Shown here one piece after another: positions 2,087 to 19,772 of a stretch of 64,000 nt of DNA. The notes beneath the pieces are model-generated. The model worked only from the letters and a program-made list of their open reading frames with translations. It had not been told where the DNA came from and made no database searches. The position numbers and the translations under genes are program-made. Source of the DNA: a virus. The stretch is from the IMG/VR virus record IMGVR_UViG_3300022562_000354, positions 32,001-96,000 of that record; one strand, written 5' to 3'. Each line of letters opens with the position of its first letter. Positions within the stretch are counted from its first letter, which is position 1.

Positions 2087-2149
2087 AGGTCACCTCTCCG
2101 GCATCCATACACCCAGGTAGCCACGCATACCCGCTGAATAATATGCAGT

Positions 2150-3713: not shown

Positions 3714-3723
3714 ACCTTCGTCT

Positions 3724-3730
3724 TACACCG
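3724..3730 (-). promoter_or_regulatory. CGGTGTA motif
   Basis: Exact intergenic copy, 10 nt before ATG 3713. Confidence 0.65.
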
Positions 3731-3750
3731 GAAAATGCAGCGAAACCAGC

Positions 3751-3966: not shown

Positions 3967-3969
3967 CGA

Positions 3970-4362: not shown

Positions 4363-4385
4363 GCTTTAGGTGAAGCATCGAAGCA

Positions 4386-5815: not shown

Positions 5816-5821
5816 GGTGGC

Positions 5822-7393
5822 TCACTTACCACCAGAGATCATAAGGAAATGCTCGGAACGGTGGTTCGAGGCCAGACGGGCGCGGATCCCGTCGTCCGCC
5901 TCAGCGTCGTAGCCCACCCAATCGAGGATTTCCTTGATCTCGTCATTCATCGTCTTGATGATACGGGGGCGGCGGGCAAGCTCGTTTCCGAGGATCGCCT
6001 CATCGAGAGCAGGTTTTTTGGCGGCGAAGGAGTCGATCATAGCCGCCTTGATGGCCTGCTCGATCTCGCGTCCGACCAGGTTCTTGGCTCGGTCGGCGAG
6101 GTCGGCGAGGTTGAAGGACGACATGTCCTGGCTGGACTTCTTGGCATGGATCTTCAAGATGTCGATGCGGTCCTCTTCCGTGGGGAGGTCGAAGAAGAAT
6201 CGCTCGGGCATACGGTTGACCATCTCCACCGGAAGAGTCTTCAGGGAGTTGGCCGTCATGGCGATGCAGACTTGGGCCTTGGTTTCCTGAGACCACGTGG
6301 ACAGGATACCGAGGAGGCGGGACGTGGTACCTGCATCCGACTGCGCCGATGACTGGGTGCCTGCGAGGGACTTCTCAGCTTCATCGATCCACATGACGCA
6401 AGGCGAGATCCCCTCGATGATCTTGAGGGCTCGGTACATGTTGTTTTCCGAGTCGCCGACGCCGGAGGAGCGGAGCCGCCCCAACTCGAATTGTACCAGG
6501 GGGAGACCCCACTCTCGGGTCATCGCCTTGGCGCAGACGGACTTGCCGCACCCGTAGACGCCAACCAAGAGAACGCCTCGGGGCGGGGTAAGCCCGAAGG
6601 CTTGACCCTCTTTGGTCCAGCAAGCCTTGGACTTCCGTGCCCACTCTTTGAAGCGCTGGGCGCCGCCGATCGTGGCGAACGACTCATCGTCCGTGTTGGC
6701 GAACGAAACGAGGTCAGACTTACGGAGCTGGTTCCGCTTGTACTCGACGACGTGAGTAGGGTCGACACGGCGGGCATTGGTAGCCTCTTTCCGCGTACGG
6801 ACAACCGACTGCGTGATAGACGCCTCGATCTCGTACGAGGTCATCCCCTTGAAAAGATTGGTGACGTCCGGGGGCGGGGTGGCGCGGAGCTGCGTACAGA
6901 ACTGCTGGACGCATTGATTGATCTCCTCGCCCGTGAGCCCGGTGTCGTGGACGACCTCCATGTAGCGAGCGAGCTTTTCAGGTACCGACTTGCGGTGCCC
7001 CACGAAGATGAGGCACTTGACGATGCGGAGATCCTGATGGAGCTGGTGGATGATGTTGAGCGTACGCCGTACGACGTGCTCATCCTTGAACCAGCGCTCG
7101 GGGTCCGTGATGATGTAGAAGTTCTCGGTGTCCTTCGGATCATCTTGGTAAATCTTGATCATCGCATCGTTGATGCTCGCGGCATCCGAGGCGACGGAAT
7201 GGGCTCGGCTTGACCAGTCACGGACCATGTCCGCGATCGGCTTGAGCCCCATGGCGGCGTTGTACACCCACGTACGGGCCTCGTGCTTCTTCATGTGCTC
7301 GTGGAAGCGGACGATGAAGCGGTCCTCCTCATCCGTCACGAAGAAGATGGCTCGGGTCAGGGCGCGTAGTTGATGTACCAGTTCAGGCGTCAT
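5822..7393 (-). CDS. Ycf46-like AAA+ ATPase
   Basis: 523 aa. Inactive N-terminal AAA-like domain, then IGGAQRFKEW, PRGVLLVGVYGCGKS, WIDEAEK, MTANSL..LP.E, FFFDLP, GREIEQAI. Confidence 0.92.
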   Translation of the reverse strand: MTPELVHQLRALTRAIFFVTDEEDRFIVRFHEHMKKHEARTWVYNAAMGLKPIADMVRDWSSRAHSVASDAASINDAMIKIYQDDPKDTENFYIITDPERWFKDEHVVRRTLNIIHQLHQDLRIVKCLIFVGHRKSVPEKLARYMEVVHDTGLTGEEINQCVQQFCTQLRATPPPDVTNLFKGMTSYEIEASITQSVVRTRKEATNARRVDPTHVVEYKRNQLRKSDLVSFANTDDESFATIGGAQRFKEWARKSKACWTKEGQAFGLTPPRGVLLVGVYGCGKSVCAKAMTREWGLPLVQFELGRLRSSGVGDSENNMYRALKIIEGISPCVMWIDEAEKSLAGTQSSAQSDAGTTSRLLGILSTWSQETKAQVCIAMTANSLKTLPVEMVNRMPERFFFDLPTEEDRIDILKIHAKKSSQDMSSFNLADLADRAKNLVGREIEQAIKAAMIDSFAAKKPALDEAILGNELARRPRIIKTMNDEIKEILDWVGYDAEADDGIRARLASNHRSEHFLMISGGK

Positions 7394-7416
7394 TTGCTTG
7401 GGCTCCGAGATTAATC

Positions 7417-7423
7417 TACACCG
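7417..7423 (-). promoter_or_regulatory. CGGTGTA motif upstream of the AAA ATPase
   Basis: Exact intergenic copy, 23 nt before ATG 7393, just after the hairpin; followed by a GGAG RBS. Confidence 0.65.
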
Positions 7424-7435
7424 CTAGAAAGGCAA

Positions 7436-7468
7436 GAGGCCCACCCTTTTCAAAAAAGGGCGGGCCTC
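7436..7468 (-). terminator. 15-bp stem-loop, putative intrinsic terminator or processing stem
   Basis: Minus-strand RNA GAGGCCCGCCCUUUU-UUG-AAAAGGGUGGGCCUC, then UUGCCUUUCU. The single imperfect pair is G-U on the minus strand only. Confidence 0.7.
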
Positions 7469-7486
7469 AAGCTGCCCCTTCGGCGG

Positions 7487-7822
7487 TCACGCTCGCTGGA
7501 CGATCACGTAGGTATCGCCGTTCTTCTCCGTGCCGCTCTCGGTGATGATGTGACCTTCCTTGAAGGCCACAGCGCGGAACTCGGCTTCCGAGTACGCTTG
7601 GCGGAGAAGGCCGAGCTTGCTCGCGTCGGTGTTCCTGAAGTGGTCGACATCTCCACTCTGGATGCGCCCCGTGGCGAGGTTGATCGAAGCACCGTTGTAG
7701 GCGCCGGAGAGAAGATCGATAACGGTACCGTGCTCGCGGTACTCGATCTTCTGCTGCTTGAGAGCCGTGATGAGGTGCTCACGGTTCGTCATCTCCGACT
7801 CAATCGTAACTCGGTGAGACAT
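7487..7822 (-). CDS. DUF1257/Ycf35-like protein
   Basis: MSHRVTIESEMTNREHLITALKQQKI...LLRQAYSE...KEGHII matches the DUF1257 pattern. Start moved to ATG 7822 (GAAAGGA RBS). Next to a Ycf46-like ATPase. Confidence 0.8.
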   Translation of the reverse strand: MSHRVTIESEMTNREHLITALKQQKIEYREHGTVIDLLSGAYNGASINLATGRIQSGDVDHFRNTDASKLGLLRQAYSEAEFRAVAFKEGHIITESGTEKNGDTYVIVQRA

Positions 7823-7857
7823 AGTTCGTTCCTTTCGAGATGGCCGGGAGGTTGTTC

Positions 7858-8037
7858 TCAGCCGCCGCTGTTGACTTCGTGGACCGTGGGGCAATCCCCA
7901 TCGGGGATGTGCTCATCCGAGATGGTTCGCCCCAACTGCTGGGTGACCCTCGTGATTTCGTTGCAGTCGTGCTCCTGACGGTTGAGCACTTCCACAACCT
8001 TCTTCCCGTCCGTCTTGAATGAGACCTTGTAAAGCAT
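7858..8037 (-). CDS. DUF2997-like small protein (59 aa; missed by ORF track)
   Basis: MLYKVSFKTDGKKVVEVLNRQEHDCNEITRVTQQLGRTISDEHIPDGDCPTVHEVNSGG*. Has DG.V..EV.....C...T....LG; AAGGAAAGG RBS. Confidence 0.78.
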   Translation of the reverse strand: MLYKVSFKTDGKKVVEVLNRQEHDCNEITRVTQQLGRTISDEHIPDGDCPTVHEVNSGG

Positions 8038-8064
8038 CGTCGCGCCTTTCCTTGAGGGGCCTAC

Positions 8065-8733
8065 TCACTCTACACCGTTTCCACCTAGACGAACAGTAGC
8101 GCCACGTTTTACTACGACAACGCCTTGTTCTGTTTTTCGAGGCGGCTCGGGAGCGGCCCATGGGTCTTTGGGTGCCGTAGCGGGTTTTCCCGGCAACATT
8201 CGCCCACTTTGCTTGGGGGTGTTCATCTGAAGCAAGTCTGGGGACAACTTCGTCGTCGTAGCTTTCACCATAGGTTTGGTTGAAGCGGCGACGGGTTGTG
8301 GAGCCGGCTCGGGTGATTCTGGTACCTTGAGGGGCTCCTCGGGGATGGGAACAGGGGCGGGTTCCGTCTCCGGGATGGGCTCTTCCTCCTCTACGGCGGG
8401 GGGAGGCTCGCTATCTTGCGGCACCGGGTCCGGTTCTGCAAGGTCTCTTGGGTCCAACCATGCCGAGGGCGTCCCGATCGCCTGGACTGGAGGGTTGAAC
8501 ATCTTGAACTGTTTGGCTTGAATCTCACGGATCCTCGGGTCCGTAGGGTCCATTCTAGGTACCTTCGAGAAGAGGCGCTCCTCCCAGGTGGCGACCCGTT
8601 GGTCGAACTTGGTGGTACCATGCGCAGATCGGGTGCATTCCGGTTGAACGCAGCGAACGCAGAACGCCAACCGGAAGTCCTCAACCGGGACCTGTTGGTC
8701 GTTACATTCGCGGAGATAGTCCAGCCGTCGCAT
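8065..8733 (-). CDS. Hypothetical protein with an N-terminal Cys cluster and Pro/Glu-rich disordered tail
   Basis: 222 aa; EC...FCVRCVQPEC, then long PE/PA tracts. Confidence 0.75.
   Translation of the reverse strand: MRRLDYLRECNDQQVPVEDFRLAFCVRCVQPECTRSAHGTTKFDQRVATWEERLFSKVPRMDPTDPRIREIQAKQFKMFNPPVQAIGTPSAWLDPRDLAEPDPVPQDSEPPPAVEEEEPIPETEPAPVPIPEEPLKVPESPEPAPQPVAASTKPMVKATTTKLSPDLLQMNTPKQSGRMLPGKPATAPKDPWAAPEPPRKTEQGVVVVKRGATVRLGGNGVE
8071..8077 (-). promoter_or_regulatory. CGGTGTA motif upstream of the DUF2997-like gene
   Basis: Exact copy, 33 nt before ATG 8037, inside the 3' end of the upstream gene. Confidence 0.55.
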
Positions 8734-8758
8734 CTATCTTCTCGATCCCATAAGGACA

Positions 8759-11700
8759 CTAGAGGTTGTGGTCACGCATCCGACGCGCAAACTCATCCGG
8801 GTTGACCAAGAACCCTTCGCTTGGATCGATGAGGGTTTCATTGGAGATAGCGCAGATCAAATGTAGGGCTTTGCAGTCCCCATTGTCCATCGTGTTGACC
8901 AGAACACTCAGGACTTGGCGGGCGGATTGCTCTGAGAGCACGGGGAGTTGGTAGGTGAAGACTTCCCCCTTGACCACTACGTGCCCATTGGAGCCGTTTG
9001 GCTTGGCCACCGGGGGTGGCGGTGGAGTCGAAGGTACCGGAGTGGCTTGTGTCGGAGTGGCTTGTGCCGGAGTGGGGGCCGGGGATGGAGTCGCTACCGG
9101 CGCTTGAGGTTGAGCTGTGGGGGGCTTCGGAGCCTGAGTCGGAGCTGCTGTCTTGGAACCCCCAGTCGGGAACGGCTGCGCCAACCACTCGGCGAGACCA
9201 TCGGGCTGCGGCAGGTAGTCCGGGAAGATGACCCCTTCGAGCCACTGAGGTACCTTCGTGTAGACGCGGTCGCCGACCCGGATCTGGCTGTCCTTGAGCG
9301 GCTTGTCGCCTTCCTTCGGGGGCTTGTGCTCCCCCCGCATGACCTTGTGGTAGTCGATCTTGCAGTCCCAAGTCGTGTCGATGAGAGGCTCCACCTCAAG
9401 CGGTACCTCCCACTTCACGAGCCGACCAGGGAGCGTCATCAAAGCCTCGATGACGTGCATCGCCTTCTGGAAGAAGCCGGCCTCCACGCCCTCATGGCGG
9501 ATCTCGAAGACGATTTCGTCGTGAACCGTCATAAGCATCCGGATGAGATCCGCCTGGATCCACCCGAGCTTGTAGAACTCCTTGTGAAGTAGAACGAGCG
9601 CCATCTTCATGATGTCGGCGCCCGCCCCTTGGATCGGGTAGTTGATGGACCAACGCTCCGCCGCCGCGATGAGGGGCTTGTTCGGCGACCCGTCCGGGAG
9701 CTGCGAGTCGATCTCGGGGATGTAGATCCAACGGCCGAAAGGGGTCTTGATACCCTTCTTGGCCTTGACGAACGCCTTTTGCCCCTTCACCCACTGGGCG
9801 AAGACCGGCATCGCCTTGTCGAAGTTGGACTTCCTCCGAGCGCCTTCCTGCTGGCTGCACCCGGTCGCTCGCATGATGGCTTGAGCCCCGCCACCGTAAA
9901 CGAGCGAAAAGTTGGCGATTTTGCCTTGTTGTCGCTCTTGCTTCGTGATCTCCTGCTTGTTGAAGAACGCACGAGCCGTGATGCTGTGTAGGTCGCCTGT
10001 CCCCTCTTTGAACTCCTTGATCCACACGGGCTCTTTGGAGAGGTTGGTGACGATGCGAAGCTCCTCACCCGCGAAGTCGACCTTCGCCATCGTGTAGCCA
10101 GGTCGAGCCTTGAACGCTTGGCGGAGAGCTGTGGCGACCTTCGGCTTCTTCTCGTCGTAAGTACCGGGGATCCCGTGAGGTGGGAACCCGCAGAAGCCGT
10201 GCTCAGGCTTCCCAGCGGGAGCACTGATACGACCCGTAGCTGCTCCGTGCTGTTTGAACTGGATGCGAGCCTCATCGTTGGCATCGCAGTTCTTGGTCAT
10301 GCTTTCGAGGTAGGTCCCGATGACCTTCTCGACTTGCCGGTACTTGACGATGGTGAGGAGAACCGGGTTGACGTTGCTACCCTCGACGAGCCCCTCCAAG
10401 GTGTCCGCGTCCGTCTTGTGCCACCCAGACTTCTCGTTCACCTCGGGCTTCGGGGTGATGTTGAGACCGTTGGGGCTTGAGAAGAGAAACTCCGACAACT
10501 GCTGGGGAGACTGGGGGTCGAAGTTGTTGAAGCCGTGTTGCTCCGCCAACGTCACGATTTGGTAGCGGTACCCCTCGGCCTCCTTCTTGGCCGTCTCAAA
10601 CAACCCCTTCACATAAGGCAAGTCGAGAAACACCCGGTGCCGTTCCATGCCCCGAAGCGCCTGCGCCGCCTGCTTTTCAAGGCGGTACGTGTTGGCGTAC
10701 ATGGGGTCACGCACCATGGCCGCCATGACCGGGTTGTCACAGTGCATGAAGGTGCAGATGGCATCCGAGCACCCGTAACGTAGACCCTCCTCGGGGTGCA
10801 GTTCCGCAAACCGAATCTCACGTCGTTTACCGCTGGACGAGACGAACAGCTCTTTCAGCTCGATCATCTCGTAGGGGATCTCCATCCCCTTCTCGTCTTT
10901 GACGCGGTTCCCGTCGACCGTGACGAACAACTGTTTCGCCGACTTGGACTTGAGGTCGAGGTTCTTGTCGTTCGTGTACCGGCAGTAGTAGAGGAGCATC
11001 GCGTCCTCGAACGACTCCGGGTGCCACCAATCGATCCCCGTGACCGGGTATAGCATCTCTTGATCGTACTTCGCGTTCCAGAAGTACAACTTGACCTTGC
11101 CGGGCTCCTTGATCAGCGGACTGCTGAGAGGGTCTTGAACCAGACCCTCATCCGTGAGGACCGGCTGCGCTGCGAGGCAAAGCCGTTGAATAGCCTTGCC
11201 GGCTGCCACTACATCGAGGTTCGGTGAGTCCTCGGCCGTGTGGCGGACAGGAACGTAGTAGCCCGTCTGCCCGTCTGGGCTGAGGCAGTAGCCGACGATC
11301 TTGTGGACCGTCTGAGGGATGCGCTCGGGTGTCGGACCGTCCCAATACTCCTCGAATGCCCCTTTGATTTCCTCGGGCTTCTTCCAGTAGATGCGCGTAT
11401 CGAGCCCGTGTGTCTCCAGGTCGAGGGCGCACTTTCCGGTGATTAGGGCCTTTTCGATGACTTCGTAGAGCTGCTCGATGGTCTTGACGAGGACGAAGTC
11501 GTGGTACCGCATCCACGGCTTGGTGATATCGGGCACCTCTCGCTGTTGCTTGAGCCCCATGTCCGCCATGAAGCTGAGAGGATCGTCGTCCCCGTCTATG
11601 GCGCTAACCGCTGGGGCGGTCGGTGCATCGGGTAGGTCGATTTCGAGGTCACCTCCGGGATCAGGCGCCTCCTCAACCTTGGCCAGACCTACAAGCATAT

Positions 11701-11848
11701 CGAGGGGATCGTCGTCCTCCTCCTCCTCAACAACGGGGGGAGGAGGCAGGATTTCCTCGATAGGCACGGGGAAAATGCCGTCCTCCCGGATCCACTCGTG
11801 GAGCCGGAACAGTTCCCCCAAGGACACGAAATCGCTATTGTTCGGCAT
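8759..11848 (-). CDS. polA: Family A DNA polymerase with 3'-5' exonuclease
   Basis: ExoI ALDLETHG, ExoII NAKYD, ExoIII YGCSDA; ATGRIS; motif A VDFAGEELR; motif B RQQGKIANFSLVYG; NYPIQGAGADIMK; motif C VHDEIVFE. Likely start is ATG 11848 (MPNNSDF), not 11929. Confidence 0.96.
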   Translation of the reverse strand: MPNNSDFVSLGELFRLHEWIREDGIFPVPIEEILPPPPVVEEEEDDDPLDMLVGLAKVEEAPDPGGDLEIDLPDAPTAPAVSAIDGDDDPLSFMADMGLKQQREVPDITKPWMRYHDFVLVKTIEQLYEVIEKALITGKCALDLETHGLDTRIYWKKPEEIKGAFEEYWDGPTPERIPQTVHKIVGYCLSPDGQTGYYVPVRHTAEDSPNLDVVAAGKAIQRLCLAAQPVLTDEGLVQDPLSSPLIKEPGKVKLYFWNAKYDQEMLYPVTGIDWWHPESFEDAMLLYYCRYTNDKNLDLKSKSAKQLFVTVDGNRVKDEKGMEIPYEMIELKELFVSSSGKRREIRFAELHPEEGLRYGCSDAICTFMHCDNPVMAAMVRDPMYANTYRLEKQAAQALRGMERHRVFLDLPYVKGLFETAKKEAEGYRYQIVTLAEQHGFNNFDPQSPQQLSEFLFSSPNGLNITPKPEVNEKSGWHKTDADTLEGLVEGSNVNPVLLTIVKYRQVEKVIGTYLESMTKNCDANDEARIQFKQHGAATGRISAPAGKPEHGFCGFPPHGIPGTYDEKKPKVATALRQAFKARPGYTMAKVDFAGEELRIVTNLSKEPVWIKEFKEGTGDLHSITARAFFNKQEITKQERQQGKIANFSLVYGGGAQAIMRATGCSQQEGARRKSNFDKAMPVFAQWVKGQKAFVKAKKGIKTPFGRWIYIPEIDSQLPDGSPNKPLIAAAERWSINYPIQGAGADIMKMALVLLHKEFYKLGWIQADLIRMLMTVHDEIVFEIRHEGVEAGFFQKAMHVIEALMTLPGRLVKWEVPLEVEPLIDTTWDCKIDYHKVMRGEHKPPKEGDKPLKDSQIRVGDRVYTKVPQWLEGVIFPDYLPQPDGLAEWLAQPFPTGGSKTAAPTQAPKPPTAQPQAPVATPSPAPTPAQATPTQATPVPSTPPPPPVAKPNGSNGHVVVKGEVFTYQLPVLSEQSARQVLSVLVNTMDNGDCKALHLICAISNETLIDPSEGFLVNPDEFARRMRDHNL
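9038..9075. repeat. 15-nt tandem repeat, 2.5 copies, in the polymerase Pro-rich linker
   Basis: CGGAGTGGCTTGTGT-CGGAGTGGCTTGTGC-CGGAGTGG, encoding TPAQA-TPTQA-TP. Confidence 0.8.
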
Positions 11849-12269
11849 CGACCACCACGACTGTATACACCCCCTCACGCCAGAACTTGACCAGCTCCGC
11901 GATGAGCCGACGAGCATTGGGGTCTTCAATCCCAGATGGCTCGAAGCACCAAGGCATCTTGGAGTGCAGAGGTACGCACTCTTTCGGCCGATAGAAAGGA
12001 CATGGATCCCGCCGCTCGCACACCCGGTTGCCCACAGGGAGCTTCCGGAGGGCTCCCTCGGGTGGGATGCCGAGCGCCTTCACCAAGGGGGAGGACCAGC
12101 CGGCGAGAGCGTGGTCCATCACCGCCTTGTCTACGACCGTAAGCAGGTTGGTTGCCTCCAACCCCTGAGCCGGTACCCACGTCTCTTCCCAACGTTGGCC
12201 GTACTGATAGATGAGGTACAGCTCAAGGTCCCCCATCTCCGCCGTCTTGACCTTGAGTCGTCTAGGCAC
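11835..12269 (-). CDS. Hypothetical protein with a four-Cys cluster
   Basis: 144 aa; C-x5-C-x7-C-x9-C. Overlaps both neighbours. Confidence 0.75.
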   Translation of the reverse strand: MPRRLKVKTAEMGDLELYLIYQYGQRWEETWVPAQGLEATNLLTVVDKAVMDHALAGWSSPLVKALGIPPEGALRKLPVGNRVCERRDPCPFYRPKECVPLHSKMPWCFEPSGIEDPNARRLIAELVKFWREGVYTVVVVDAEQ

Positions 12270-12912
12270 CCCGGATCTTCTCCCCGATCTTGTCGAGGAT
12301 GAGCCGAGCCCTCTTGTCCGCCTCCTCGGGGTCGATCGTCCGGTTCGTGACGTTGAAGTGGAGCCCGTCGAGCAACTTCCCCACCGTCAAAAAACCCCGC
12401 ATATCGAAGTCAGACTTGGCTTGCCGCAAGCGGCTTTCACACACACGGAGGAGAGAAATTACGGCCTCTTCCTCCTCCGTAGGACCCGCTCGTCTCCGTG
12501 AAGACCAATCGACCTGCGGCCCCTCTGGGGTGATGATGCCAAACGCCTTCTCCAAACCGAGCAAGACAGCCGTAAATCGGGCATCCGTCTCGTTGTTGAA
12601 CTTCTTCCAAAGGGCGAAGATGTCCCACCGCTCTTGGCACACGAAGCACCAAACGTGAGACGCCGAGCGGGCACTCTCCGGATAGACGCGGGCAGAGGGG
12701 TCCGTGTCTCGTCCATGGAAGGGACACGAGATTTGCTCCTCCGCCTCCGAACCCCCATAACGAAGGTCTACCCCGAAGCGTCGAAGCACGTCATGAGCGG
12801 AAACGTTGGACTTCAGAGTGTCCGTGCGTTGACGCACCCACTCACGGTACTGCTCGTTACGCTCTGCATCACGTAGGGCGTCCTTGTAGTTCTCGCCGAA
12901 GTCGCGGGCCAT
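12262..12912 (-). CDS. Stand-alone CHC2 primase-type zinc-finger protein
   Basis: CPFHGRDTDPSARVY...WCFVCQERWDIFAL matches the DnaG zinc-binding domain; no TOPRIM domain follows. Confidence 0.88.
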   Translation of the reverse strand: MARDFGENYKDALRDAERNEQYREWVRQRTDTLKSNVSAHDVLRRFGVDLRYGGSEAEEQISCPFHGRDTDPSARVYPESARSASHVWCFVCQERWDIFALWKKFNNETDARFTAVLLGLEKAFGIITPEGPQVDWSSRRRAGPTEEEEAVISLLRVCESRLRQAKSDFDMRGFLTVGKLLDGLHFNVTNRTIDPEEADKRARLILDKIGEKIRGA

Positions 12913-13112
12913 CAAAGCTCCTCCGACTCCTCAACCACGGGGCTCCGGATGATCCGGCACTCACACGTCTCGTAAAGCGTAGAACCCCAGAAGACCCGAG
13001 TGTGATTGTCGTGAGGGTAGCCGGGAACGAGGTCCCCTTGCTGATGGACGACCCTCATCCCCGTACCCCCGCAAACGAAGCACTGGGTAGAGAACGTACA
13101 AGGGAGGTTCAC
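12912..13112 (-). CDS. Small Zn-ribbon protein (66 aa)
   Basis: GTG at 13112 overlaps the DnaB stop (GTGA); CFVCGGTG...TCEC. Confidence 0.65.
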   Translation of the reverse strand: MNLPCTFSTQCFVCGGTGMRVVHQQGDLVPGYPHDNHTRVFWGSTLYETCECRIIRSPVVEESEEL

Positions 13113-14590
13113 CCGAACATCCCTTGTACGGCCTTGTCGATCGAAAAGACAGAGGTGCGGTGGTCGTCGAGGCTCATACCCTTGTCCGACGTGGCCCCCG
13201 TGAGCTGGTCGTGGTTGAAGATGCGTCTCGTCTTCCAATCAACACCGGCCACGAAGTGAGGGAAAAACGGGCCGTCACGACGCTTCAGGCAGTCGAACAG
13301 CGTGGTACCCGCCGTCCGGTGCTCATCATTGAGGTACGTGGTCGTAACCACGTCGGCAGAACGCTCGGCTTCGTTGGCGTAGCTGAGCGCTCGGAGCTTG
13401 TAGCGACCTTCGTTCTTGTCCGCGTAGTCCTTGCCGTCACGGTTGATCTGGAAGAGCAACAAGACGGGGACCTTCTCGCCGTGATTGAAGTGAAGGGCCA
13501 GCTTTTTGGAGTCTCGGAGGACCGAGTTCAATTCGATCGTGTAGTCCTTACCGCGCTTCTTCTTGCGGGGCTCGACGAGTCCGCCGTGGTCGATGACGAG
13601 GAGGTGAACCTCGTTCTTCTGGTGCGACAGCTCGGCCGCCATCTTGATGTCGTCGGTCGTGACATCGTCGTCCGGGCTCCACACGTCGAACGAGCCGTAC
13701 TCCGGGTTGTTCACGAAGTCGTCGATGACGAGCTGGTAGAACTTCTCCTCTTCGGGGGTGAGCGTACCGGCGCAAATCCGGTCGTATTCGAGCGACTCGT
13801 AACCGAGGAGCTTGAACCTCGGGTTAGACGAGTGCATGGCGTAGATCATTGCCCGCACTTGCTCGTACGGCATCTCCAAGGTCACGTAGAAGACGTTGGA
13901 GCGGTACCGGGTCACGAGGTTGTAGGCCCAGTTGAGAGCGAAGCTGGTCTTCAACTCTCCGGTGAAGGCAGCGTGAAGCCAAAGCTCACCACGCTTGATG
14001 CCCCGGAGAACCTTGTCGATGTTGTTGAGGCCGCAGAACTTTCCCCAAGCGAGGCCCTTGTTGGCCTTGGCCTCTTGGTAGTTGTCCCAGACCTCTTGCC
14101 CATCCTCACGGATGTTGCCTTGGATCCGAGCGTTGTGCTGGTAGACGAGGAGCTTGTGGGCGTTCTGCGAGAAGTGAAGAACGCCATCCCGAAGACCTTG
14201 CTTCTTCTCTTGGCCGATGACCAGTCCCTTGGAGATGATCTCCTGCGACTCTTTGAGGATGGTGATCGCCTTGACCCGGTTCTGCTCCTCGACCGTGGTA
14301 GAGATCAGGTGGGCGTAGTTCGTACGGATGTACGGCTTTTGCCCCTCGTAGTCCTTGATACGCTCGACGACCTCTTGATCCCGCTTGGCCTCGAAGAAGT
14401 CTGCGAGGGTCTGCCTAGCTGGGATCTCCAGGCGTTGATGGAAGTAGTTGAGGACGAAGTCGTAGACCCGCTGGTCAGCCGGCTGCGTCCACTCAACATG
14501 GGAAGCGACGAGCTTCTGGAAGTTGGCGACGAGGTTCTCCTGAGAGACCCCACCATCCATGTCGATGACGGACCGTAGGAGGCCCTTCAT
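13109..14590 (-). CDS. dnaB: DnaB-like (SF4) replicative helicase
   Basis: GIKRGELWLHAAFTGELKTS (H1), YVTLEMP (H1a), LLVIDH (H2), FQINRDG (H3), AERSADVV, KRRDG (H4). Confidence 0.92.
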   Translation of the reverse strand: MKGLLRSVIDMDGGVSQENLVANFQKLVASHVEWTQPADQRVYDFVLNYFHQRLEIPARQTLADFFEAKRDQEVVERIKDYEGQKPYIRTNYAHLISTTVEEQNRVKAITILKESQEIISKGLVIGQEKKQGLRDGVLHFSQNAHKLLVYQHNARIQGNIREDGQEVWDNYQEAKANKGLAWGKFCGLNNIDKVLRGIKRGELWLHAAFTGELKTSFALNWAYNLVTRYRSNVFYVTLEMPYEQVRAMIYAMHSSNPRFKLLGYESLEYDRICAGTLTPEEEKFYQLVIDDFVNNPEYGSFDVWSPDDDVTTDDIKMAAELSHQKNEVHLLVIDHGGLVEPRKKKRGKDYTIELNSVLRDSKKLALHFNHGEKVPVLLLFQINRDGKDYADKNEGRYKLRALSYANEAERSADVVTTTYLNDEHRTAGTTLFDCLKRRDGPFFPHFVAGVDWKTRRIFNHDQLTGATSDKGMSLDDHRTSVFSIDKAVQGMFG

Positions 14591-15471
14591 ACTGGTCCGC
14601 CCCCCGACCGTCGCTTCTTGGGGTTGAACTTGGACCGCCCCCCGCCAAGCACGGGATCGAGAATTGGGTCCAGATCAACCTCCGGTTCAGGCTCCGGAGC
14701 CGCCCTCTTTGGGCGTTGCTTGGGTTCGGCTACAGCCACGGCCTTGGTGGTCTCGTCATCGACGGACAGCCCGACGTCATCGTCGGTAAGCCCTGGGCCG
14801 CCGCCTTCGATGGGGAAGACCTCAAAACGGTCACGGATGTAGTCGGCCACGTCCCGGCTCCACGTGTAGTGACCTTCCTCAAAGGGAGAATCGGGCTCCT
14901 CCACGAGCCACGTGGGTAGCCTCAACGCTTGCCGTACCATGAGGGCCTCTTTCAAGATGCCGCCCATGGCTTGGTTCTTCCACCCGAGGAACCCCAGCCG
15001 AATGATGGCGAGGGTGTGCATCGGGCCAATGAGGTCTTCGATCGTGTTGTAGGTGGCGATCTCATCCGCCCGTTGCTTCTTGCTGCGGGCTTGGTTCGAC
15101 TCCTTGCCGAACCAGACGTTGCGGAGCTTCTCGTCCGTCACGACCGTAAACGAGAAGCCCTCCAGACCCACCGTGTTGAACTTGCAGATGAACGTCCACT
15201 TGAAGTGGGAGAGTATGGCAGACCACCACCCCTTCAAGATGAGGTTGTTCTTCGTCCTGTCGATGACCGGGGGCTCCCCGTGCTCCACGGCCGGCTGGTA
15301 GAGCGGGCTCTCCTGTCCGAGCTTTGCCATGGCAATCTCAGGCCCCAGCCGAAGCACCACCCGCTTGTTGTAGACGCACACGCAGGACTGCATCCGGTCC
15401 GCCTCGACCTCGATGCGATGACCTAGCCCGTGGCAATGCGGGCAGTCGGGATCCGGTGTTACTGAAGCCAT
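14587..15471 (-). CDS. DnaC/IstB-like helicase-loader homologue with a degenerate P-loop
   Basis: N-terminal CPHCHGLG...CVC zinc finger; NNLILKG followed by WWSAIL instead of xxGxGKT; ILKEALMVRQALRLPTW. ATGA overlap with DnaB. Confidence 0.6.
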   Translation of the reverse strand: MASVTPDPDCPHCHGLGHRIEVEADRMQSCVCVYNKRVVLRLGPEIAMAKLGQESPLYQPAVEHGEPPVIDRTKNNLILKGWWSAILSHFKWTFICKFNTVGLEGFSFTVVTDEKLRNVWFGKESNQARSKKQRADEIATYNTIEDLIGPMHTLAIIRLGFLGWKNQAMGGILKEALMVRQALRLPTWLVEEPDSPFEEGHYTWSRDVADYIRDRFEVFPIEGGGPGLTDDDVGLSVDDETTKAVAVAEPKQRPKRAAPEPEPEVDLDPILDPVLGGGRSKFNPKKRRSGGGPV

Positions 15472-15482
15472 CCGGGAATGCT

Positions 15483-15489
15483 TACACCG
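15483..15489 (-). promoter_or_regulatory. CGGTGTA motif at the head of the replication operon
   Basis: Exact intergenic copy, 11 nt before ATG 15471. Confidence 0.65.
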
Positions 15490-15500
15490 ACACCAATTCC

Positions 15501-17213
15501 CTACTTTTCACGGAGCGCGAGAACAAGGTCCCGTAGCTCGCCTTCCCCACGGTCAAACTTGAGCGCCCCTACGGCCGCCTCTCCGATGACCTGGTCGATA
15601 AGCCCCTTCTTTTTCCTCAGTTTTTTCACGACCTTATGGTCGATAGTCTCGCGATCCTTACCCTTCTTACCGGGACGCTCTGCGATGAGGTGGATGGCGA
15701 GCACCTTCTGGTGAGGGCTGCCGATGCGGATCATGCGTCCGAGGAGCTGGACGTAGTTCCCCCAGGACCACGGGGAGTCGAAGAAGATCATCCCAACGGC
15801 CGCCTGGAGGTTGATGGCCTCGCTGCCGGCGTCGGTGATGAAGATGACCTTCACGTCGCTGTTGAGGTCTTGGAACTTGTCCTGAGCCTTCTTGCGGTCG
15901 GAGTCCTTGTTGATCTTCCCCGTGATGGCGACGCTCTTGATGCGCTCCGCCGTGAGGAGCTTCTGGAGCCTCCCTACGAGCTTCTCGAAGCGGGTGTAGA
16001 TGATGACCTTCTCGCCCTCAAACTCCTCTTTCAGAAGGTCGATGAGAGCCTGCTCCTTAGCGCTCTTGCCCTCGAAGTGCCCAACCCCGATGTCCCCCTC
16101 CTCGAACTTGAGGAGCCCGATCGAGTCGACGACCTCTTGCGTGTAGATGAGGCTCGTTAGCTCCTTCGTTTCCTTGTAGTCCCTCACGTCCCCGTCCCCA
16201 AATTCGAGGATGCCAGTGAGGGCCTCTTGGTACTTCTTGTCCTCCGCTGGGCTCAGCTCGCAAAGGACTTCGCGGGTCGTGAGGGAGGGTAGCTCGTCGC
16301 TAACCAAGTGCTTGGGTCTTCCGTAGAAGTAGGGGTCGATGGTCTCTCGAAAGTGGTTCAGGTTCTTGTACCCAACCACGATGGGGATCTTGGCGCCGCC
16401 CTTCACCCGCTGCATCTCGGTGACGCAGTAGACGTTGATGAAAGCGGTCTTGGACGAGAACGTACCCGGTCGGATGACTTGGTAGATTCCGAAGCCTTCC
16501 ATGAGGTTGTTCTTCAGGAGGGTCGCCGTCAGACCCCAACATCGGAACGAACGCTCCGAAAGAAACCTGCACGTCTGGTGCGTCTTCGTGCTCGGATTCT
16601 TGAAGGCGGTCGCCTCGTCGAAGATGGTGACGACCTTGGGGATCCGGTGAGTCAGAGCGTCCAGGTAGCCTCGGCCGGTCACCGCTTGCGTACCCGGCTT
16701 GGAGCCCGGCGCTGGGGGTGTCTTGGTGATGCCCTCGTCCCAGTCCTTGACCATCGAGTGGTAGTTCGTGATGAGGACCGAAGGACCCTCGCTCTTGAAC
16801 CATGCTTGGTAGGACTCTTTGCGTTGTTTTGGGGTGCCGGTCCCGATGTACGTCGTGATCCCGGTCGTGAACTTCTCGATCTCGCTGGCCCACTGGCGAA
16901 TGGCCGACTTGGGACAGACGACGATGACCTTGATCGAGGAGTCACGCTCCCAGAGATAGCAAAGGGCTCCGATGGCCTGGACGGTCTTGCCGAGTCCGGT
17001 GCCATCACCAAGGACCATCCGGTTGACCATGAGCAGGTGGAAAATCCCCTGGCACTGGTAGTACCGGAGCTTGAAAGGCTGCGGTGTCCCGTCGAGACCT
17101 ATGAACTCCTGACGAAACATCTTCGTCGGGTTCAAAGCCATGGTCTTGGAAGCTCGGACTTGCTTGAGCTGCTCGTAGACAGGGTTCGTTGTAACAGAGG
17201 CCGTCATGGTCAA
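15501..17213 (-). CDS. SNF2-family (SF2) helicase/translocase
   Basis: LRYYQ, LGDGTGLGKT, VVCPKS..QW..EI, IFDEA, LTATLLKNN, AINLQAA, QLLGRMIRIG. Confidence 0.94.
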   Translation of the reverse strand: MTMTASVTTNPVYEQLKQVRASKTMALNPTKMFRQEFIGLDGTPQPFKLRYYQCQGIFHLLMVNRMVLGDGTGLGKTVQAIGALCYLWERDSSIKVIVVCPKSAIRQWASEIEKFTTGITTYIGTGTPKQRKESYQAWFKSEGPSVLITNYHSMVKDWDEGITKTPPAPGSKPGTQAVTGRGYLDALTHRIPKVVTIFDEATAFKNPSTKTHQTCRFLSERSFRCWGLTATLLKNNLMEGFGIYQVIRPGTFSSKTAFINVYCVTEMQRVKGGAKIPIVVGYKNLNHFRETIDPYFYGRPKHLVSDELPSLTTREVLCELSPAEDKKYQEALTGILEFGDGDVRDYKETKELTSLIYTQEVVDSIGLLKFEEGDIGVGHFEGKSAKEQALIDLLKEEFEGEKVIIYTRFEKLVGRLQKLLTAERIKSVAITGKINKDSDRKKAQDKFQDLNSDVKVIFITDAGSEAINLQAAVGMIFFDSPWSWGNYVQLLGRMIRIGSPHQKVLAIHLIAERPGKKGKDRETIDHKVVKKLRKKKGLIDQVIGEAAVGALKFDRGEGELRDLVLALREK

Positions 17214-17746
17214 TCCCTGGTCCGCCAGAGGTCCGCCGAGATAGGTGGAAGCCGCTCGCCAGCCGCAATGGCTTCAAGCCGCTCAGCCTCCATTCTAGCC
17301 TCTATCTCCTGCATTCGCCTCAAGTCCTCTTCCGTGGGCTCAGGCTCCGCGAAGCGTCGGTCCTCATCGGCGAGTACCCGCTTCACGTGGTCGATGAAGG
17401 CTTGAGGGGGCTTGACGTTGTGGGCCTCGATGTAGTGAACGAACCCTTGCGGCCAAATGAAAGCCGCATCCCCTTGGCACGTAGAACCGTTGTGGGTGCC
17501 GCAAATACGGCAAGATGACCAACCACGCCATTGAATGAGGTCCGGCTGGTTCTTGACGTAGGACAGCACGATGGCCTTTTCTTCGGGATCCCAAGACGGG
17601 TCCACGAAGTCCCTTGGATCTGGAAGAAAGTCGTACCTCTTGTCATGGTACGACCCTTCTGCGGATCTCCAGTAGCCGAGCGCTTGACGACCCTGAGCTT
17701 CGCGGGGAGTGTTGGGGTGAGCGACGAACATGGAGGGAAGAGACAT
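17210..17746 (-). CDS. Hypothetical protein with CxxC
   Basis: 178 aa; WRGWSSCRICG...WPQGFVHYIEAHNVKPPQAF. Overlaps the SNF2 start. Confidence 0.8.
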   Translation of the reverse strand: MSLPSMFVAHPNTPREAQGRQALGYWRSAEGSYHDKRYDFLPDPRDFVDPSWDPEEKAIVLSYVKNQPDLIQWRGWSSCRICGTHNGSTCQGDAAFIWPQGFVHYIEAHNVKPPQAFIDHVKRVLADEDRRFAEPEPTEEDLRRMQEIEARMEAERLEAIAAGERLPPISADLWRTRD

Positions 17747-17757
17747 CCCTCGCTTAC

Positions 17758-17764
17758 TACACCG
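17758..17764 (-). promoter_or_regulatory. CGGTGTA motif at the late/replication module boundary
   Basis: Exact copy directly after the stop at 17765 and 11 nt before ATG 17746. Confidence 0.65.
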
Positions 17765-18376
17765 TCACCAGAAGGCGAAGTACAACCCAGCTTGGGGGTT
17801 GTGGAGGAGCGTCCACCACGAGAATGCGTAGCCACCGTACGCCCCGAAGTTCTTGGTGAGGTCTACCCCAACGCCAGCTCCGACCGAACGGAAGCCAGTC
17901 GCCACGTTCAGGTTGAACTGGCGGTAGTGAACGAAGTCCCAGAGGATGCCAACGTCCACGGCTTCTCCAGCCGTGTCCTGCTTGAAAGCATCGACGAAGA
18001 GGAAGCTCCCCGCGAACTTGGGTCGGAATCGGAAGCCCCAAACGGGAGGCTCTCGCTTGGCTACAGCTACATCGAGCTTCCCTTGAGCTTCGACTTCGTA
18101 GTTGCACCACGACATCTTCACGGTGTACGGACGTGGCTGCGCTCCCGAATAGTAGACGCGACCCTCTACGTCCGTGACGATGACAACCGGATCAAGCTGA
18201 AACTTCGGCTTTTCCGTCTGGAGGCACTTCTTCTCGCGGAGGACTTGGAGGAGGACTTCCATGTCCTCCTTGGGCACGCAGGTAGCTCCGTCAGGACAGG
18301 TCTCTTGGGCTTGCGCGTCCACGGGCAGCGTGAAGGGGGCGATCATCGACACGAGAAGAGCCCTCCAGCGCATCAC
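17765..18376 (-). CDS. Secreted protein with a C-terminal outer-membrane beta-barrel-like domain
   Basis: Signal peptide ending AQA, no lipobox, 4 Cys. Amphipathic strands VDVGILWDF, FNLNVATGF, VGAGVGVDL, FGAYGGYAF; aromatic C-terminus GLYFAFW. Confidence 0.7.
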   Translation of the reverse strand: MMRWRALLVSMIAPFTLPVDAQAQETCPDGATCVPKEDMEVLLQVLREKKCLQTEKPKFQLDPVVIVTDVEGRVYYSGAQPRPYTVKMSWCNYEVEAQGKLDVAVAKREPPVWGFRFRPKFAGSFLFVDAFKQDTAGEAVDVGILWDFVHYRQFNLNVATGFRSVGAGVGVDLTKNFGAYGGYAFSWWTLLHNPQAGLYFAFW

Positions 18377-18933
18377 CCACCGTACTTTGCAAGTAGGTCA
18401 TCAACCTTGGCGGCGGGGATGCCCGACTTGTCCTTGACCGTCACGATGTGGACATCCGGCTTGACCACGACGACTTGGTCCACGTCCTTGTTGGTGACCC
18501 CGTCAGGCAAGACGATCTCGGTAGGCTTGTCTTTGCCAGGCTCCGTGAAGACCACCTTCTTGGGGTCGGAGAAGAGCCCCGGCTCCGTGATGGGCACCAC
18601 GACCGCCTGAGTCATCCCCTTCGAGTCCGGGGTGCCTGGCTGGATGAGCTTTCCGTCTGGGCCAACACGGTCTGGATCGACCGTGTTGGCAACGTCTACG
18701 ACGGACCCTTCACCCTCCGGGTCCTTCTTCCCGAGGAGCTTCCCGATGAGCCCACCGATCTGAAGCTCCTTGAAGCCCATCGAAACGAGCACGATCGCCA
18801 CGATGACGAGCACCACCACGAGGATGGGACCGATCGCCTTCGAGGTGACCCACGAGAAGGACGACTTGATCGACTCCCAAGCACGGGAGCCCCAAGAGGG
18901 CTTCTCAGGGGCGGGAGCGGGGGACGGAGCCAT
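18373..18933 (-). CDS. Single-TM inner-membrane protein (i-spanin-like position)
   Basis: Start moved to ATG 18933 (GAGGA RBS, 2 nt after the holin stop). TM IGPILVVVLVIVAIVLVSMGF, then a soluble domain; ATGA overlap with the next gene. Confidence 0.7.
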   Translation of the reverse strand: MAPSPAPAPEKPSWGSRAWESIKSSFSWVTSKAIGPILVVVLVIVAIVLVSMGFKELQIGGLIGKLLGKKDPEGEGSVVDVANTVDPDRVGPDGKLIQPGTPDSKGMTQAVVVPITEPGLFSDPKKVVFTEPGKDKPTEIVLPDGVTNKDVDQVVVVKPDVHIVTVKDKSGIPAAKVDDLLAKYGG

Positions 18934-18935
18934 GC

Positions 18936-19418
18936 TCAGTCCTCGTTGCCAACCCCGCCGACCTTGGGCTCGTCCTTGGCCTCTTCCGCCTTGGGCTCTT
19001 CCTCTGCCACCGGGCCGGGGGGATCCGAGGTCATCGGAGGAATCGAGGGCGTCTCGACCTTCACTCCCTTCACGCCAACCTTCACCCCCTTCATGGGACC
19101 GCTCTGAACCCACGACCGAACACGGGCGTAGATCAAGGCGGAGAAAGCCCCGCAGATGGCTCCGTAGGCGATCCGACCCGAGAGCGAGCCATGAACCACG
19201 GCAGGCCACACAAAGGTCTTCATGACGACCCCGAGAATGGCGCCGTTGGCGATGGGGCCGATGGGGAGCCACACCTCTCGCCAGATCCGGTTCTGCTTGG
19301 CGTCCTTCCAGAAGCCCTCGACAACCTTACGGATTACGTAGGTCATCAAGTAGATGGCGAGGCAGAGAATGAGAGTCTGTGAATTGACGAAAGACTCTAC
19401 GATGTTGTCAAGGTCCAT
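18936..19418 (-). CDS. Holin-like membrane protein (about 3 TM segments)
   Basis: Hydrophobic segments LILCLAIYLMTYVI, VWLPIGPIANGAILGVVM, IAYGAICGAFSALIY; charged C-terminal tail; GAGGAGG RBS. Confidence 0.65.
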   Translation of the reverse strand: MDLDNIVESFVNSQTLILCLAIYLMTYVIRKVVEGFWKDAKQNRIWREVWLPIGPIANGAILGVVMKTFVWPAVVHGSLSGRIAYGAICGAFSALIYARVRSWVQSGPMKGVKVGVKGVKVETPSIPPMTSDPPGPVAEEEPKAEEAKDEPKVGGVGNED

Positions 19419-19463: not shown

Positions 19464-19772
19464 CTACCCGGCCTTCACGTCTACCGAGAGGGTCTCTGCT
19501 AGCTCGACAGAGTGGTTTTGGGGCGTTCGAGCCGGTTGTGCAGGCGGAGCTGGCGGGGGAGGCGGGGCCTCGGGCTTCGGGCAGATGTCATCCACCTTCC
19601 CGGACTCCCACCGAGAGACCCAAGCCAGTCTCTCGTGGAGGTCTTTCCTCTGGGGCTCCGTAAGGTGCGGATTAGAGAGGAGGATGTGGAGTTGCTGCCT
19701 GGCTTGGGCCGCCCCCTTCGCTCGAATGTCCGCAGGGACCTCGTGAATGGTGATCCTACCCCTCGCCATCAC
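19464..19772 (-). CDS. Hypothetical protein
   Basis: 102 aa, overlaps the fibre-gene stop. Ends HSVELAETLSVDV, similar to the beta-strand repeats in 37974-39722. Confidence 0.7.
   Translation of the reverse strand: MMARGRITIHEVPADIRAKGAAQARQQLHILLSNPHLTEPQRKDLHERLAWVSRWESGKVDDICPKPEAPPPPPAPPAQPARTPQNHSVELAETLSVDVKAG

Follow-up and report, generated by a model that had tools for sequence, protein, structure and literature searches.

Two coupled genes of an uncultured jumbo phage encode an inner-membrane (IM) protein with a single transmembrane (TM) helix and an exported protein with a putative outer-membrane (OM) β-domain, and we suggest, with a probability of roughly 0.45, that the pair is a spanin analogue without a lipoprotein. 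The in silico analysis found export signals and an OMP-like domain in the exported protein, predicted docking of the two proteins, their fusion in relatives and, in one relative, their linkage to an endolysin. Somewhat more tentatively still, the pair may represent a new class of spanin, with a BAM-inserted, probably oligomeric six-strand anchor, a β-rich IM subunit and, in some lineages, a fused 'reverse' unimolecular form, which would be the OM-disruption device of the whole clade of 375–530-kb phages.

Gene order and conservation of the locus

The window, the 64-kb stretch of DNA analysed here, is part of a 110-kb fragment of the phage genome; the record is about 23% complete, and the complete relatives of the phage are 375–530 kb in size. 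The features discussed below are as follows.

18936–19418, minus strand: holin-like gene, 160 aa (ORF and RBS)
18373–18933, minus strand: gene of the bitopic TM protein, 186 aa
17765–18376, minus strand: gene of the exported barrel-type protein, 203 aa if started at GTG, 202 aa if started at the ATG that follows
18308–18376, minus strand: signal peptide, residues 1–23 of the exported protein, with cleavage predicted after AQA
18047–18307, minus strand: N-terminal soluble domain, residues 24–110 of the exported protein (from the alignment, the AF2 model and the interface of the complex model)
17768–18046, minus strand: predicted C-terminal OMP-like β-domain, residues 111–203 of the exported protein (from the AF2 model, strand faces and structure matches)
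17757–17764, minus strand: CGGTGTAG motif, directly 3' of the stop codon of the barrel gene
19464–19772, minus strand: small soluble protein, 102 aa, between the giant fibre gene and the holin-like gene

The initial annotation had described a tightly coupled trio of a holin-like protein, a single-TM protein and a secreted protein at the end of the virion module. These are indeed three co-directional ORFs on the minus strand, preceded by the virion module and followed by the replication module. The stop codon of the holin-like gene lies 2 nt from the ATG of the TM gene, with GAGGA upstream. An ATGA overlap had been reported for the TM and barrel genes; the junction in the window is GTGATG, which can be read as a GTGA overlap or a TGATG abutment. 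ATGA is the junction in 13 of the 14 relatives in which the two genes are directly adjacent. The 102-aa protein upstream of the holin-like gene keeps its position in many relatives and has no family match in Pfam or PHROGs.

Synteny in related phages had been proposed as a check, and it shows that the TM/barrel pair belongs to the core of the clade, with 41 of 42 IMG/VR loci carrying it. The barrel family is 45–80% identical and tracks the helicase and the fibre, as a conserved core gene does and a variable moron does not. The giant fibre gene, rather than any lysis gene, is the one neighbour that the pair always has. In deep-branching relatives, variable Cys-rich lipoprotein genes cluster beside the pair. 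The CGGTGTAG motif has 8 matches where 2.9 are expected; as many as 8 occur in 1 of 100 shuffles. The copy behind the barrel gene is the first of seven on the minus strand, and since all seven are inside the non-structural gene block, the motif marks the end of the late/structural block. The TM/barrel pair is the last element ahead of the motif-marked block.

The position directly downstream of the giant fibre genes, which is invariant, would fit a different function for the exported protein, that of a Lom/Llp-like OMP for superinfection exclusion or receptor masking, encoded beside the receptor-binding fibre gene that it guards against. The llp gene of T5 likewise adjoins the T5 receptor-binding gene. 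Furthermore, receptor interference has already been proposed for OMPs of huge phages, with lambda Lom cited (2026 preprint, 10.64898/2026.10.24.761521). The initial annotation had offered a Lom-like protein as its alternative, but we found no sequence support for it: the barrel protein matches no Pfam family even at E ≤ 1, neither Ail_Lom nor any other OMP family, and no PHROG. Six strands with minimal loops, an obligatory and sometimes fused IM partner, and the behaviour of a conserved core gene are all at odds with such a role, as is the absence of the protein from all of the GenBank phage records searched (below). We consider this explanation unlikely.

Neither the barrel protein, nor the TM protein, nor the fused proteins described below have a tblastn match in 50,697 GenBank phage records. 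The nearest GenBank relatives by the SNF2 helicase are the uncultured phage LR745208 (43% identity) and Tunturiibacter phage Tunturi_5 (31%), and neither of them has synteny at the site of the pair. A scan of GTDB genomes with the barrel pattern gave no match. The TM pattern gave two MAG contigs, labelled Lysinibacter sp. and Lentisphaeria, but both are phage contigs of the same synteny, so nothing about the host follows from these labels. From the predicted β-signal of the exported protein, the host can reasonably be expected to be diderm.

The exported protein

The exported protein has the n-h-c layout of a signal peptide, by a rule-based reading of the sequence, with AQA before QETC, in agreement with the signal peptidase I-type site seen in the initial annotation. 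Across the family, positions −1 and −3 are small residues, and the first conserved Cys follows shortly, 2–4 residues past the AXA-type site. A lipobox-like motif is present in the first 45 residues of none of the 91 family members, so the absence of a lipobox holds for the family as a whole. Likewise, the four Cys are a family trait, with exactly four in 76 of the 91 members. The conserved Cys, at positions 27, 33, 51 and 91, are located in the N-terminal domain, together with one helix and short strands.

The C-terminal domain consists of six long strands, and 22 of its 93 residues (24%) are aromatic. The amphipathic strands ending in GLYFAFW that had been noticed earlier are these six, and the aromatic end is kept in the family: the C-terminal residue is W or F in 78 of 91 members, and a polar-x-G-x-x-hydrophobic-x-aromatic motif occurs within the last 16 residues of 53 of 91. 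In the window, the end QAGLYFAFW fits the β-signal pattern polar-x-G-x-x-aromatic-x-aromatic. Over the 91 sequences, each of the six strands has one hydrophobic/aromatic face, which is 0.66–0.94 hydrophobic, with Gly and polar residues on the opposite face. The AF2 model has a pLDDT of 88.9 overall and about 95–98 in the β-domain, which as a monomer resembles a closed n = 6 barrel and not an 8-strand monomeric barrel. These features support the assignment of the protein as a Sec/signal peptidase I-type export substrate without a lipobox, with a predicted OMP-like C-terminal domain that ends in a BAM-type β-signal. Eight strands are the accepted minimum for a monomeric OM barrel, and we know of no natural monomeric OM barrel with six. 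In the outer membrane, the protein would probably be an oligomer, for which the 'possibly oligomeric' of the initial annotation is a fitting qualifier.

The best VIA match of the β-domain is a designed 6-strand barrel, 9xzt, with Z = 9.0, an rmsd of 2.5 and 80 aligned residues; OmpA, OprF, OmpW, NspA and PagL follow at Z = 4.3–5.2. Foldseek found no match to the barrel protein in the PDB at E ≤ 0.001, and the ESM Atlas gave unnamed clusters together with PagL at 0.85. A PagL-like catalytic His/Ser was considered and dropped, as the candidate His is not conserved.

The designed barrel 9xzt is a soluble protein. This match, together with the lack of a known natural six-strand monomer in the outer membrane, could mean that the C-terminal domain is a small soluble six-stranded barrel, in the periplasm or, in fused forms, in the cytoplasm, and that the terminal aromatic motif is coincidental. 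However, the high aromatic content is not what such a domain would lead one to expect, and the non-hydrophobic strand faces are rich in Gly, Asn, Asp and Arg, like the lumens of small OMPs, rather than in Lys, Glu and Thr. Moreover, the signal peptide, the four Cys and the terminal F/W are all conserved. A soluble barrel is thus very improbable in our judgement; the fused forms, which bear on it from both sides, are described below.

The inner-membrane protein

The residue numbers quoted for the TM protein are the true number plus one, because the query started one codon early, at 18936. The protein begins with a positive N-terminal tail, followed by a very hydrophobic TM helix of 22 residues, a short amphipathic helix (QIGGL.GKLLGKK), a low-confidence linker and a β-rich C-terminal domain with a terminal helix. 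The AF2 model, with a pLDDT of 80.5, shows the linker as disordered and the domain as five short strands and one terminal helix. There is no coiled coil in the periplasmic domain of this model, which counts against a role as a spanin. All 283 matches in the family are annotated as 'hypothetical', and the TM protein itself has no match in Pfam or PHROGs and none in the ESM Atlas. The flank N-terminal to the TM helix is the more positive one in 52 members and the C-terminal flank in 12, with 32 ties. This charge bias favours a predicted N-in topology. The best Z in the VIA and BFVD searches with the TM model was 4.4, and these matches are dominated by helices, so they barely probe the β-domain.

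Predicted docking and natural fusions

Structure prediction of the two proteins together had been proposed as a check on their interaction. With TM residues 56–187 and barrel residues 24–203 as the input, the predictor places the TM protein, by its C-terminal domain, against the N-terminal domain of the barrel protein, with ipSAE = 0.61, 0.63 and 0.56, and 0.01 for the best of three controls. Of 80 solved complexes, 58 reach this ipSAE mark, as do 2 of 110 mismatched pairs. The runs have at least 84% of their contacts in common, and the pLDDT of the partners is at least 77. The modelled interface is formed by TM residues 78–116 and 152–185 with barrel residues 32–110, and includes an antiparallel pairing of TM 154–159 with barrel 107–102. 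The docked heterodimer looks compact, which we count against a spanin role.

The two proteins are also found in a single ORF of about 350 aa in about eight distant clusters, each less than 50% identical to the others. For one of these fusions the DNA was checked, and the ORF occupies the same syntenic position, flanked by the fibre gene and the SNF2 gene. All eight fused forms have an internal hydrophobic segment followed by an AXA-type site. The retained segment makes the topology of the fused form awkward, since with an N-in first helix the β-domain would be cytoplasmic. This is a point in favour of a soluble barrel; however, the AXA site behind the segment in all eight fused forms is a point against it. 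The fused ORF has a candidate internal start, a GTG with a weak GAG upstream. The score of the complex may itself draw on the fused homologues, so the evidence from docking and that from fusion are not independent.

The same architecture and the same predicted docking would be expected if the pair were an envelope-spanning complex with a nonlytic function during a long jumbo-phage infection, as a tether or stabiliser, as a conduit gate, or as a TonB-like puller on an OM barrel. TonB docks on the TonB box just N-terminal of the barrel of an OM transporter, and the modelled pairing of the IM protein with a strand N-terminal to the putative OM barrel resembles this geometry. The linkage of the pair to fibre genes, rather than to lysis genes, throughout the clade is in accord with this explanation, and the neighbouring Cys-rich lipoprotein genes suggest a general 'envelope' neighbourhood. 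However, searches of Pfam and PHROGs and structure searches with the TM model gave no TonB, TolA or other family signal for the pair, and a six-strand mini-domain with very short loops is unlikely to serve as a channel. The endolysin gene inserted in the pair in one relative and the adjacent holin-like gene point to lysis instead. We regard a nonlytic complex as possible, if doubtful.

Linkage to lysis genes

The holin-like protein has two clear hydrophobic segments and a weaker third one by hydropathy, and a charged C-terminal tail of Pro, Glu and Lys. The family matches are weak: E = 6.6e-5 to phrog_1299 'holin', and E = 0.018 (15.8 bits, below the cut-off of 22.4) to Pfam Phage_holin_5_1. 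Six of 21 members of the holin-like family match phrog_1299, and no other family was matched. The gene is directly upstream of the pair in the subclade of the window. In G004, a deep-branching complete genome, about 190 kb separate it from the pair, which we count against a spanin role. The 'cassette' is therefore confined to the subclade of the window.

It had been noted that no endolysin is visible in the cassette, and this holds for the window and the whole 110-kb record. Profile searches found no Peptidase_M15_4, PG_binding_1 or SLT domain in the record, and tblastn with the endolysins of relatives found none, in a record that is only about 23% complete. In one relative, L034, an ORF with PG_binding_1 and Peptidase_M15_4 domains lies exactly between the TM and barrel genes, overlapping both; this is a single case of an endolysin inserted in the pair. 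In the other relatives the endolysin is located elsewhere; in G004, an M15 endolysin is about 25 kb from the pair. In a complete relative of 448 kb, a crude scan for lipoboxes gave no canonical i/o-spanin pair, only two isolated lipoprotein-like ORFs without a TM partner. Together, the docking, the fusions and the endolysin insertion tie the TM and barrel proteins to each other and to lysis.

Proposed mechanism

In the reading that we prefer, a spanin analogue anchored by a β-domain, the two coupled genes would give one envelope-spanning complex. The 186-aa protein would sit in the inner membrane by a single N-in helix, with its β-rich domain in the periplasm. The 203-aa protein would be exported by Sec, cleaved by signal peptidase I and cross-linked by disulfides from its four Cys, and its six-strand domain would then enter the outer membrane by means of the BAM-type β-signal, probably as an oligomer. 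In the periplasm, the β-rich domain may dock, strand to strand, on the N-terminal domain of the barrel protein, thus linking both membranes. Once holin and endolysin have cleared the peptidoglycan, the complex would destabilise or fuse the outer membrane. The topology of the pair, its oligomeric state, its timing and its membrane-disrupting activity are what we infer in this scheme. With respect to the undescribed spanin type put forward in the initial annotation, we find agreement in export, the putative β anchor, gene coupling, the predicted complex, the fusions and the endolysin in L034. The TM partner, however, is β-rich instead of a coiled-coil i-spanin, the holin assignment is weak, and the cassette is confined to the subclade of the window.

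To our knowledge, all spanins described so far reach the outer membrane by a lipoprotein anchor. Annotation pipelines search for a lipobox to find spanins. No spanin can be recognised in about 13% of the phages that infect Gram-negative hosts (PMC6139136), and a barrel-anchored spanin, if real, would account for some of these phages. It would also mean that lysis can depend on the BAM machinery of the host, and that there is a second, structurally unrelated solution to the bridging and disruption of membranes. Even if the pair is nonlytic, a conserved, sometimes fused IM-to-OM bridge on a putative six-strand OM domain would be unusual for OMP biology.

Comparison with known systems

The exported protein resembles Lom, Ail and OmpX as a small putative OM β-protein with a signal peptide and a terminal aromatic residue. 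The structural resemblance is weak (Z = 4–5) and to small OM barrels as a class, with Lom, Ail and OmpX not among the matches listed. It differs from these proteins in that it has six strands instead of eight, hardly any external loops and a coupled IM partner. Like TonB, the IM protein is anchored at its N-terminus and has a flexible linker and a C-terminal domain that, in the model, adds a strand N-terminal of the OM barrel. However, the searches gave no sequence or fold match to TonB, there is no ExbBD-type partner or Pro-rich rod, and the barrel is tiny.

Six-strand OMP-like proteins of cyanophages and huge phages (IPR056410) have been modelled as a dimer that forms a 12-strand barrel, and some proteins of this type sit in conserved virion-assembly loci, with no lysis role proposed (10.64898/2026.10.24.761521). 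Like these, the exported protein is phage encoded, with a signal peptide and an incomplete six-strand OM-type barrel; the additional N-terminal domain with four Cys and the obligatory IM partner set it apart. The barrel protein has zero Pfam matches at E ≤ 1, in a library that may hold no IPR056410 model.

Unimolecular spanins differ in secondary structure from the coiled-coil type (PMC6139136). The fused relatives of about 350 aa are like the unimolecular spanin gp11 of T1 in that an IM helix and an OM anchor would be joined in one chain, and the stretch that joins the anchors does not belong to the coiled-coil type found in two-component spanins. They are unlike gp11 in their reversed polarity, with the TM helix N-terminal and the OM anchor C-terminal, in the nature of this anchor, a β-domain and not a lipid, and in the retained internal hydrophobic segment.

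No spanin family in Pfam or PHROGs is similar in sequence to the pair, which departs from lambda Rz/Rz1 in both partners. The OM partner has a signal peptidase I-type site and no lipobox, its putative anchor is a β-domain with a BAM β-signal, and its mature length is 180 aa, compared with about 40–130; the IM partner is β-rich and has neither coiled coils nor Cys. The likeness to Rz/Rz1 is in the overall design: two adjacent, coupled genes, the first for a bitopic IM protein and the second for an exported, OM-targeted protein, with predicted binding in the periplasm and conserved periplasmic Cys in the exported partner, at the end of the late genes and, in the subclade of the window, beside a holin-like gene.

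Results

The window covers bases 32001–96000 of an IMG/VR virus record 109,944 bp long (completeness 23% by CheckV), and the minus strand carries nearly all genes of the window. The three genes of interest are placed between a virion block beyond 19769, in which the tail, baseplate and fibre genes are very large, and a replication block below 17746, which encodes DUF7919, an SNF2 helicase, DnaB, a primase finger, a family-A polymerase, ThyA and a RecA-like protein.

Beyond 19769: gp6-like baseplate wedge (phrog_6, E = 3e-23)
Beyond 19769: fibre-like protein, 1521 aa
18936–19418, minus strand: holin-like protein, 160 aa, 2–3 hydrophobic segments and a charged tail
18373–18933, minus strand: TM protein, 186 aa, one 22-residue hydrophobic helix
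17765–18376, minus strand: exported protein, 203 aa

The three-gene locus noticed in the initial annotation is real and conserved. The gene order in the clade is fibre, (small protein), (holin-like), TM, exported, SNF2, DnaB, and of the 42 IMG/VR loci, 41 have the TM/exported pair, at identities as low as 25%. The holin-like and TM genes are 2 nt apart. An ATGA overlap had been claimed for the TM/exported junction; the window actually reads GTGATG, and ATGA occurs in 13 of the 14 relatives in which these genes touch. In many relatives of the window's subclade, the gene directly before the holin-like gene codes for a soluble protein of 102 aa (window 19464–19772); its position suggests a possible holin regulator of the kind described for phiKZ (PMC12894885).

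The motif CGGTGTAR has 8 matches in the whole window, with 2.9 expected. Seven minus-strand copies lie in front of genes at 1074–17764, all in the non-structural block, the first beginning one base after the stop of the exported protein gene, and the 46 kb taken up by structural genes has none on that strand. We regard the motif as a candidate promoter element through which the phage would express early or middle genes.

The exported protein has no match in Pfam or PHROG, even at E ≤ 1. A word-indexed search gave 188 relatives, all of about 200 aa and all 'hypothetical', and a full profile search gave only 118 clusters among 1.84 billion representatives; the family is small and closed. All 91 aligned members begin with a signal sequence of n-h-c layout and have a small −1/−3 site that precedes the first Cys by a few residues, and none has a lipobox-like motif. 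Exactly four Cys are found in 76 members and a C-terminal W or F in 78, and the tail of the window's protein, QAGLYFAFW, matches the beta-signal pattern.

The AlphaFold2 model of this protein (pLDDT 88.9 overall, >95 from residue 110 onward) has a Cys-containing N-domain of a helix and small strands, followed by six long strands. Family-wide, one face of each strand is 0.66–0.94 hydrophobic or aromatic and the other is rich in Gly, Asn, Asp and Arg, and aromatics make up 22 of the 93 positions of the beta domain. Because of these two-faced strands and this aromatic content, we read them as membrane-embedded strands around a polar lumen and not as the surface of a soluble barrel. The predicted complex described below leaves the beta domain free, as expected if it is membrane-seated. 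A beta domain lying outside the membrane appears improbable. The top structural match is 9xzt, a designed six-strand barrel (Z 9.0, rmsd 2.5 Å, 80 residues aligned), followed by OmpA, OprF, OmpW, NspA and PagL at Z 4.3–5.2, a range that the tool cautions is common; Foldseek gave no significant match. These results support calling the C-terminal part an OMP-like beta domain, but not a barrel of the customary eight strands: six are modelled, and an oligomeric barrel would be the natural way out.

The TM protein has 283 unnamed relatives, many sharing contigs with the exported family. In its AF2 model (pLDDT 80.5), an amphipathic helix at the N-terminus precedes the TM helix; a second, short amphipathic helix and a low-confidence linker follow, and the chain finishes in a small beta domain with a terminal helix. 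The model contains no coiled coils, and fold searches with it were uninformative. Positive charge is greater on the N-tail than on the C-flank in 52 family members and smaller in 12, with 32 ties; in some deep-branching members, the N-tail reaches a net charge of +7 to +8. This bias favours an N-in, C-out topology.

Complex prediction for the TM and exported proteins, with family alignments supplied, gave ipSAE values of 0.61, 0.63 and 0.56, while the best of three controls reached 0.01; among 80 solved complexes, 58 attained this mark, as did 2 of 110 mismatched pairs. At least 84% of contacts recur between the runs, with partner pLDDT of at least 77. The predicted interface joins TM residues 78–116 and 152–185 to exported-protein residues 32–110, and TM 154–159 would pair antiparallel with 107–102, the strand directly N-terminal of the beta domain (TM numbers are the true number +1, as queries started one codon early). 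The two proteins also occur as a single chain of about 350 aa in about 8 clusters of distant relatives; for one of them, the fused gene was confirmed in the DNA of a 113-kb viral contig (49% GC), in the same syntenic position. The score may draw on fused homologues, so these two lines are not independent; together, they make it likely that the proteins are physical partners.

In the fused forms, the former signal-peptide core persists as an internal hydrophobic segment. In all eight, an AXA-type site still precedes the first Cys, and there are basic residues 10–14 positions upstream. The segment looks like a working in-to-out signal, which would make the preceding domain cytoplasmic and clash with both an N-in first helix and the predicted docking. 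In fused cluster P0255, the segment is wholly missing. The conflict could be explained by internal initiation, by slippage of the segment through the translocon or by another topology.

Several observations speak for a lysis role. The holin-like gene is the only one of the three with a family signal, and that is 'holin' (phrog_1299, E = 6.6e-5), a family that 6 of 21 relatives match and that has no rival; the Pfam Phage_holin_5_1 match is under its cut-off. The late block closes with the TM/exported pair. At locus L034, a 279-aa PG_binding_1 and Peptidase_M15_4 protein is encoded exactly between the pair, overlapping both genes. However, the TM–exported intergenic space is an insertion hot spot, holding J-domain proteins, GIY-YIG-like ORFs, a SpoU methylase or a lipoprotein in different relatives, so this endolysin could be one more passenger. 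Its family lies 25–45 kb from the pair, beside unrelated genes, in two complete relatives, and in the deep-branching G004 about 190 kb separate the pair from the holin-like gene; both count against lysis, as does the constant neighbour of the pair, a fibre gene. A different envelope-bridging role for the pair is a possible but weaker candidate than a lysis role, and receptor masking or exclusion by the exported protein is unlikely.

Hot-spot inserts near the TM gene in related loci
L003: 4891–6189 and 6754–7938
L004: 6506–7588
L009: 1185–2084
L011: 3786–4202

Variable lipoprotein genes beside the pair in deep-branching relatives
L034: 5104–6621
L086: 7192–8175
L036: 9507–10664
L038: 8699–9268
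L043: 8655–8966

Unrelated inserts (the J-domain, 299-aa and 138-aa families) share an N-terminal motif of the type LNPLDQ(F/L)IAARV; it may serve all of them as a tag for targeting or interaction. The five lipoproteins each have a clear lipobox and a Cys-rich C-terminal part, and long low-complexity linkers rich in Gly, Ser and Thr occur in the three longest (L034, L086 and L036). None matches Pfam, and such pair-adjacent genes are absent from the window's record and the complete relative G005.

SNF2 matches in L004, L007, L008, L018, L020 and L028, and DnaB matches in L003, L025, L028, L033 and L035, are split by gaps of about 1.0–1.5 kb, and the SNF2 ORF of LR745208 (L078 7420–10413) encodes 997 aa with an inserted block. 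Such interruptions look like inteins or intron/homing-endonuclease insertions; the window's own SNF2 and DnaB are uninterrupted. In a 529-kb relative, the holin-like gene (G003:C1:211018-211431, locus L082) has one in-frame TGA, which could reflect a pseudogene, a sequencing error or stop-codon recoding. Outside the window, G000:C1:105502-108045 encodes a homologue of SLT-containing proteins of about 630 aa in G003 and G005. Its likely role is that of a virion-associated lysin; the SLT-domain portion did not align.

By tblastn, no phage among 50,697 GenBank records carries either family of the pair. Among cultured phages, the closest relative by helicase is a jumbo phage of Acidobacteriota (31% identity). 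Fibre-TM-exported-SNF2 synteny is found on MAG contigs of a Lysinibacter sp. (L085, JBBAQX010000001.1, 205 kb) and a Lentisphaeria bacterium (L086, JBAZJM010000003.1, 69 kb). Given this clade synteny, both are probably phage contigs binned with bacteria, and we rejected these labels as host assignments because they are not trustworthy.

Discussion

The initial annotation proposed that the pair may be a spanin with a barrel anchor in place of the lipoprotein, an interpretation that is partly supported. The export signal without a lipobox, the OMP-like beta domain and the predicted docking speak for that reading. We put the probability that the pair is a non-lipoprotein spanin analogue at roughly 0.45. 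In favour of it, a crude lipobox scan found no canonical spanin pair in a complete 448-kb relative. Our literature search found no paper on a barrel-anchored spanin.

Two further points count against a lysis role. Lambda Rz has coiled-coil fusion machinery, whereas the TM protein has nothing similar, and ordinary spanins are usable by jumbo phages, as in phiKZ (PMC12894885). A 2026 preprint describes six-strand OMP-like proteins in huge phages, with one cyanophage family modelled as a 12-strand dimer (10.64898/2026.10.24.761521). We found no sequence relation between these and the exported family.
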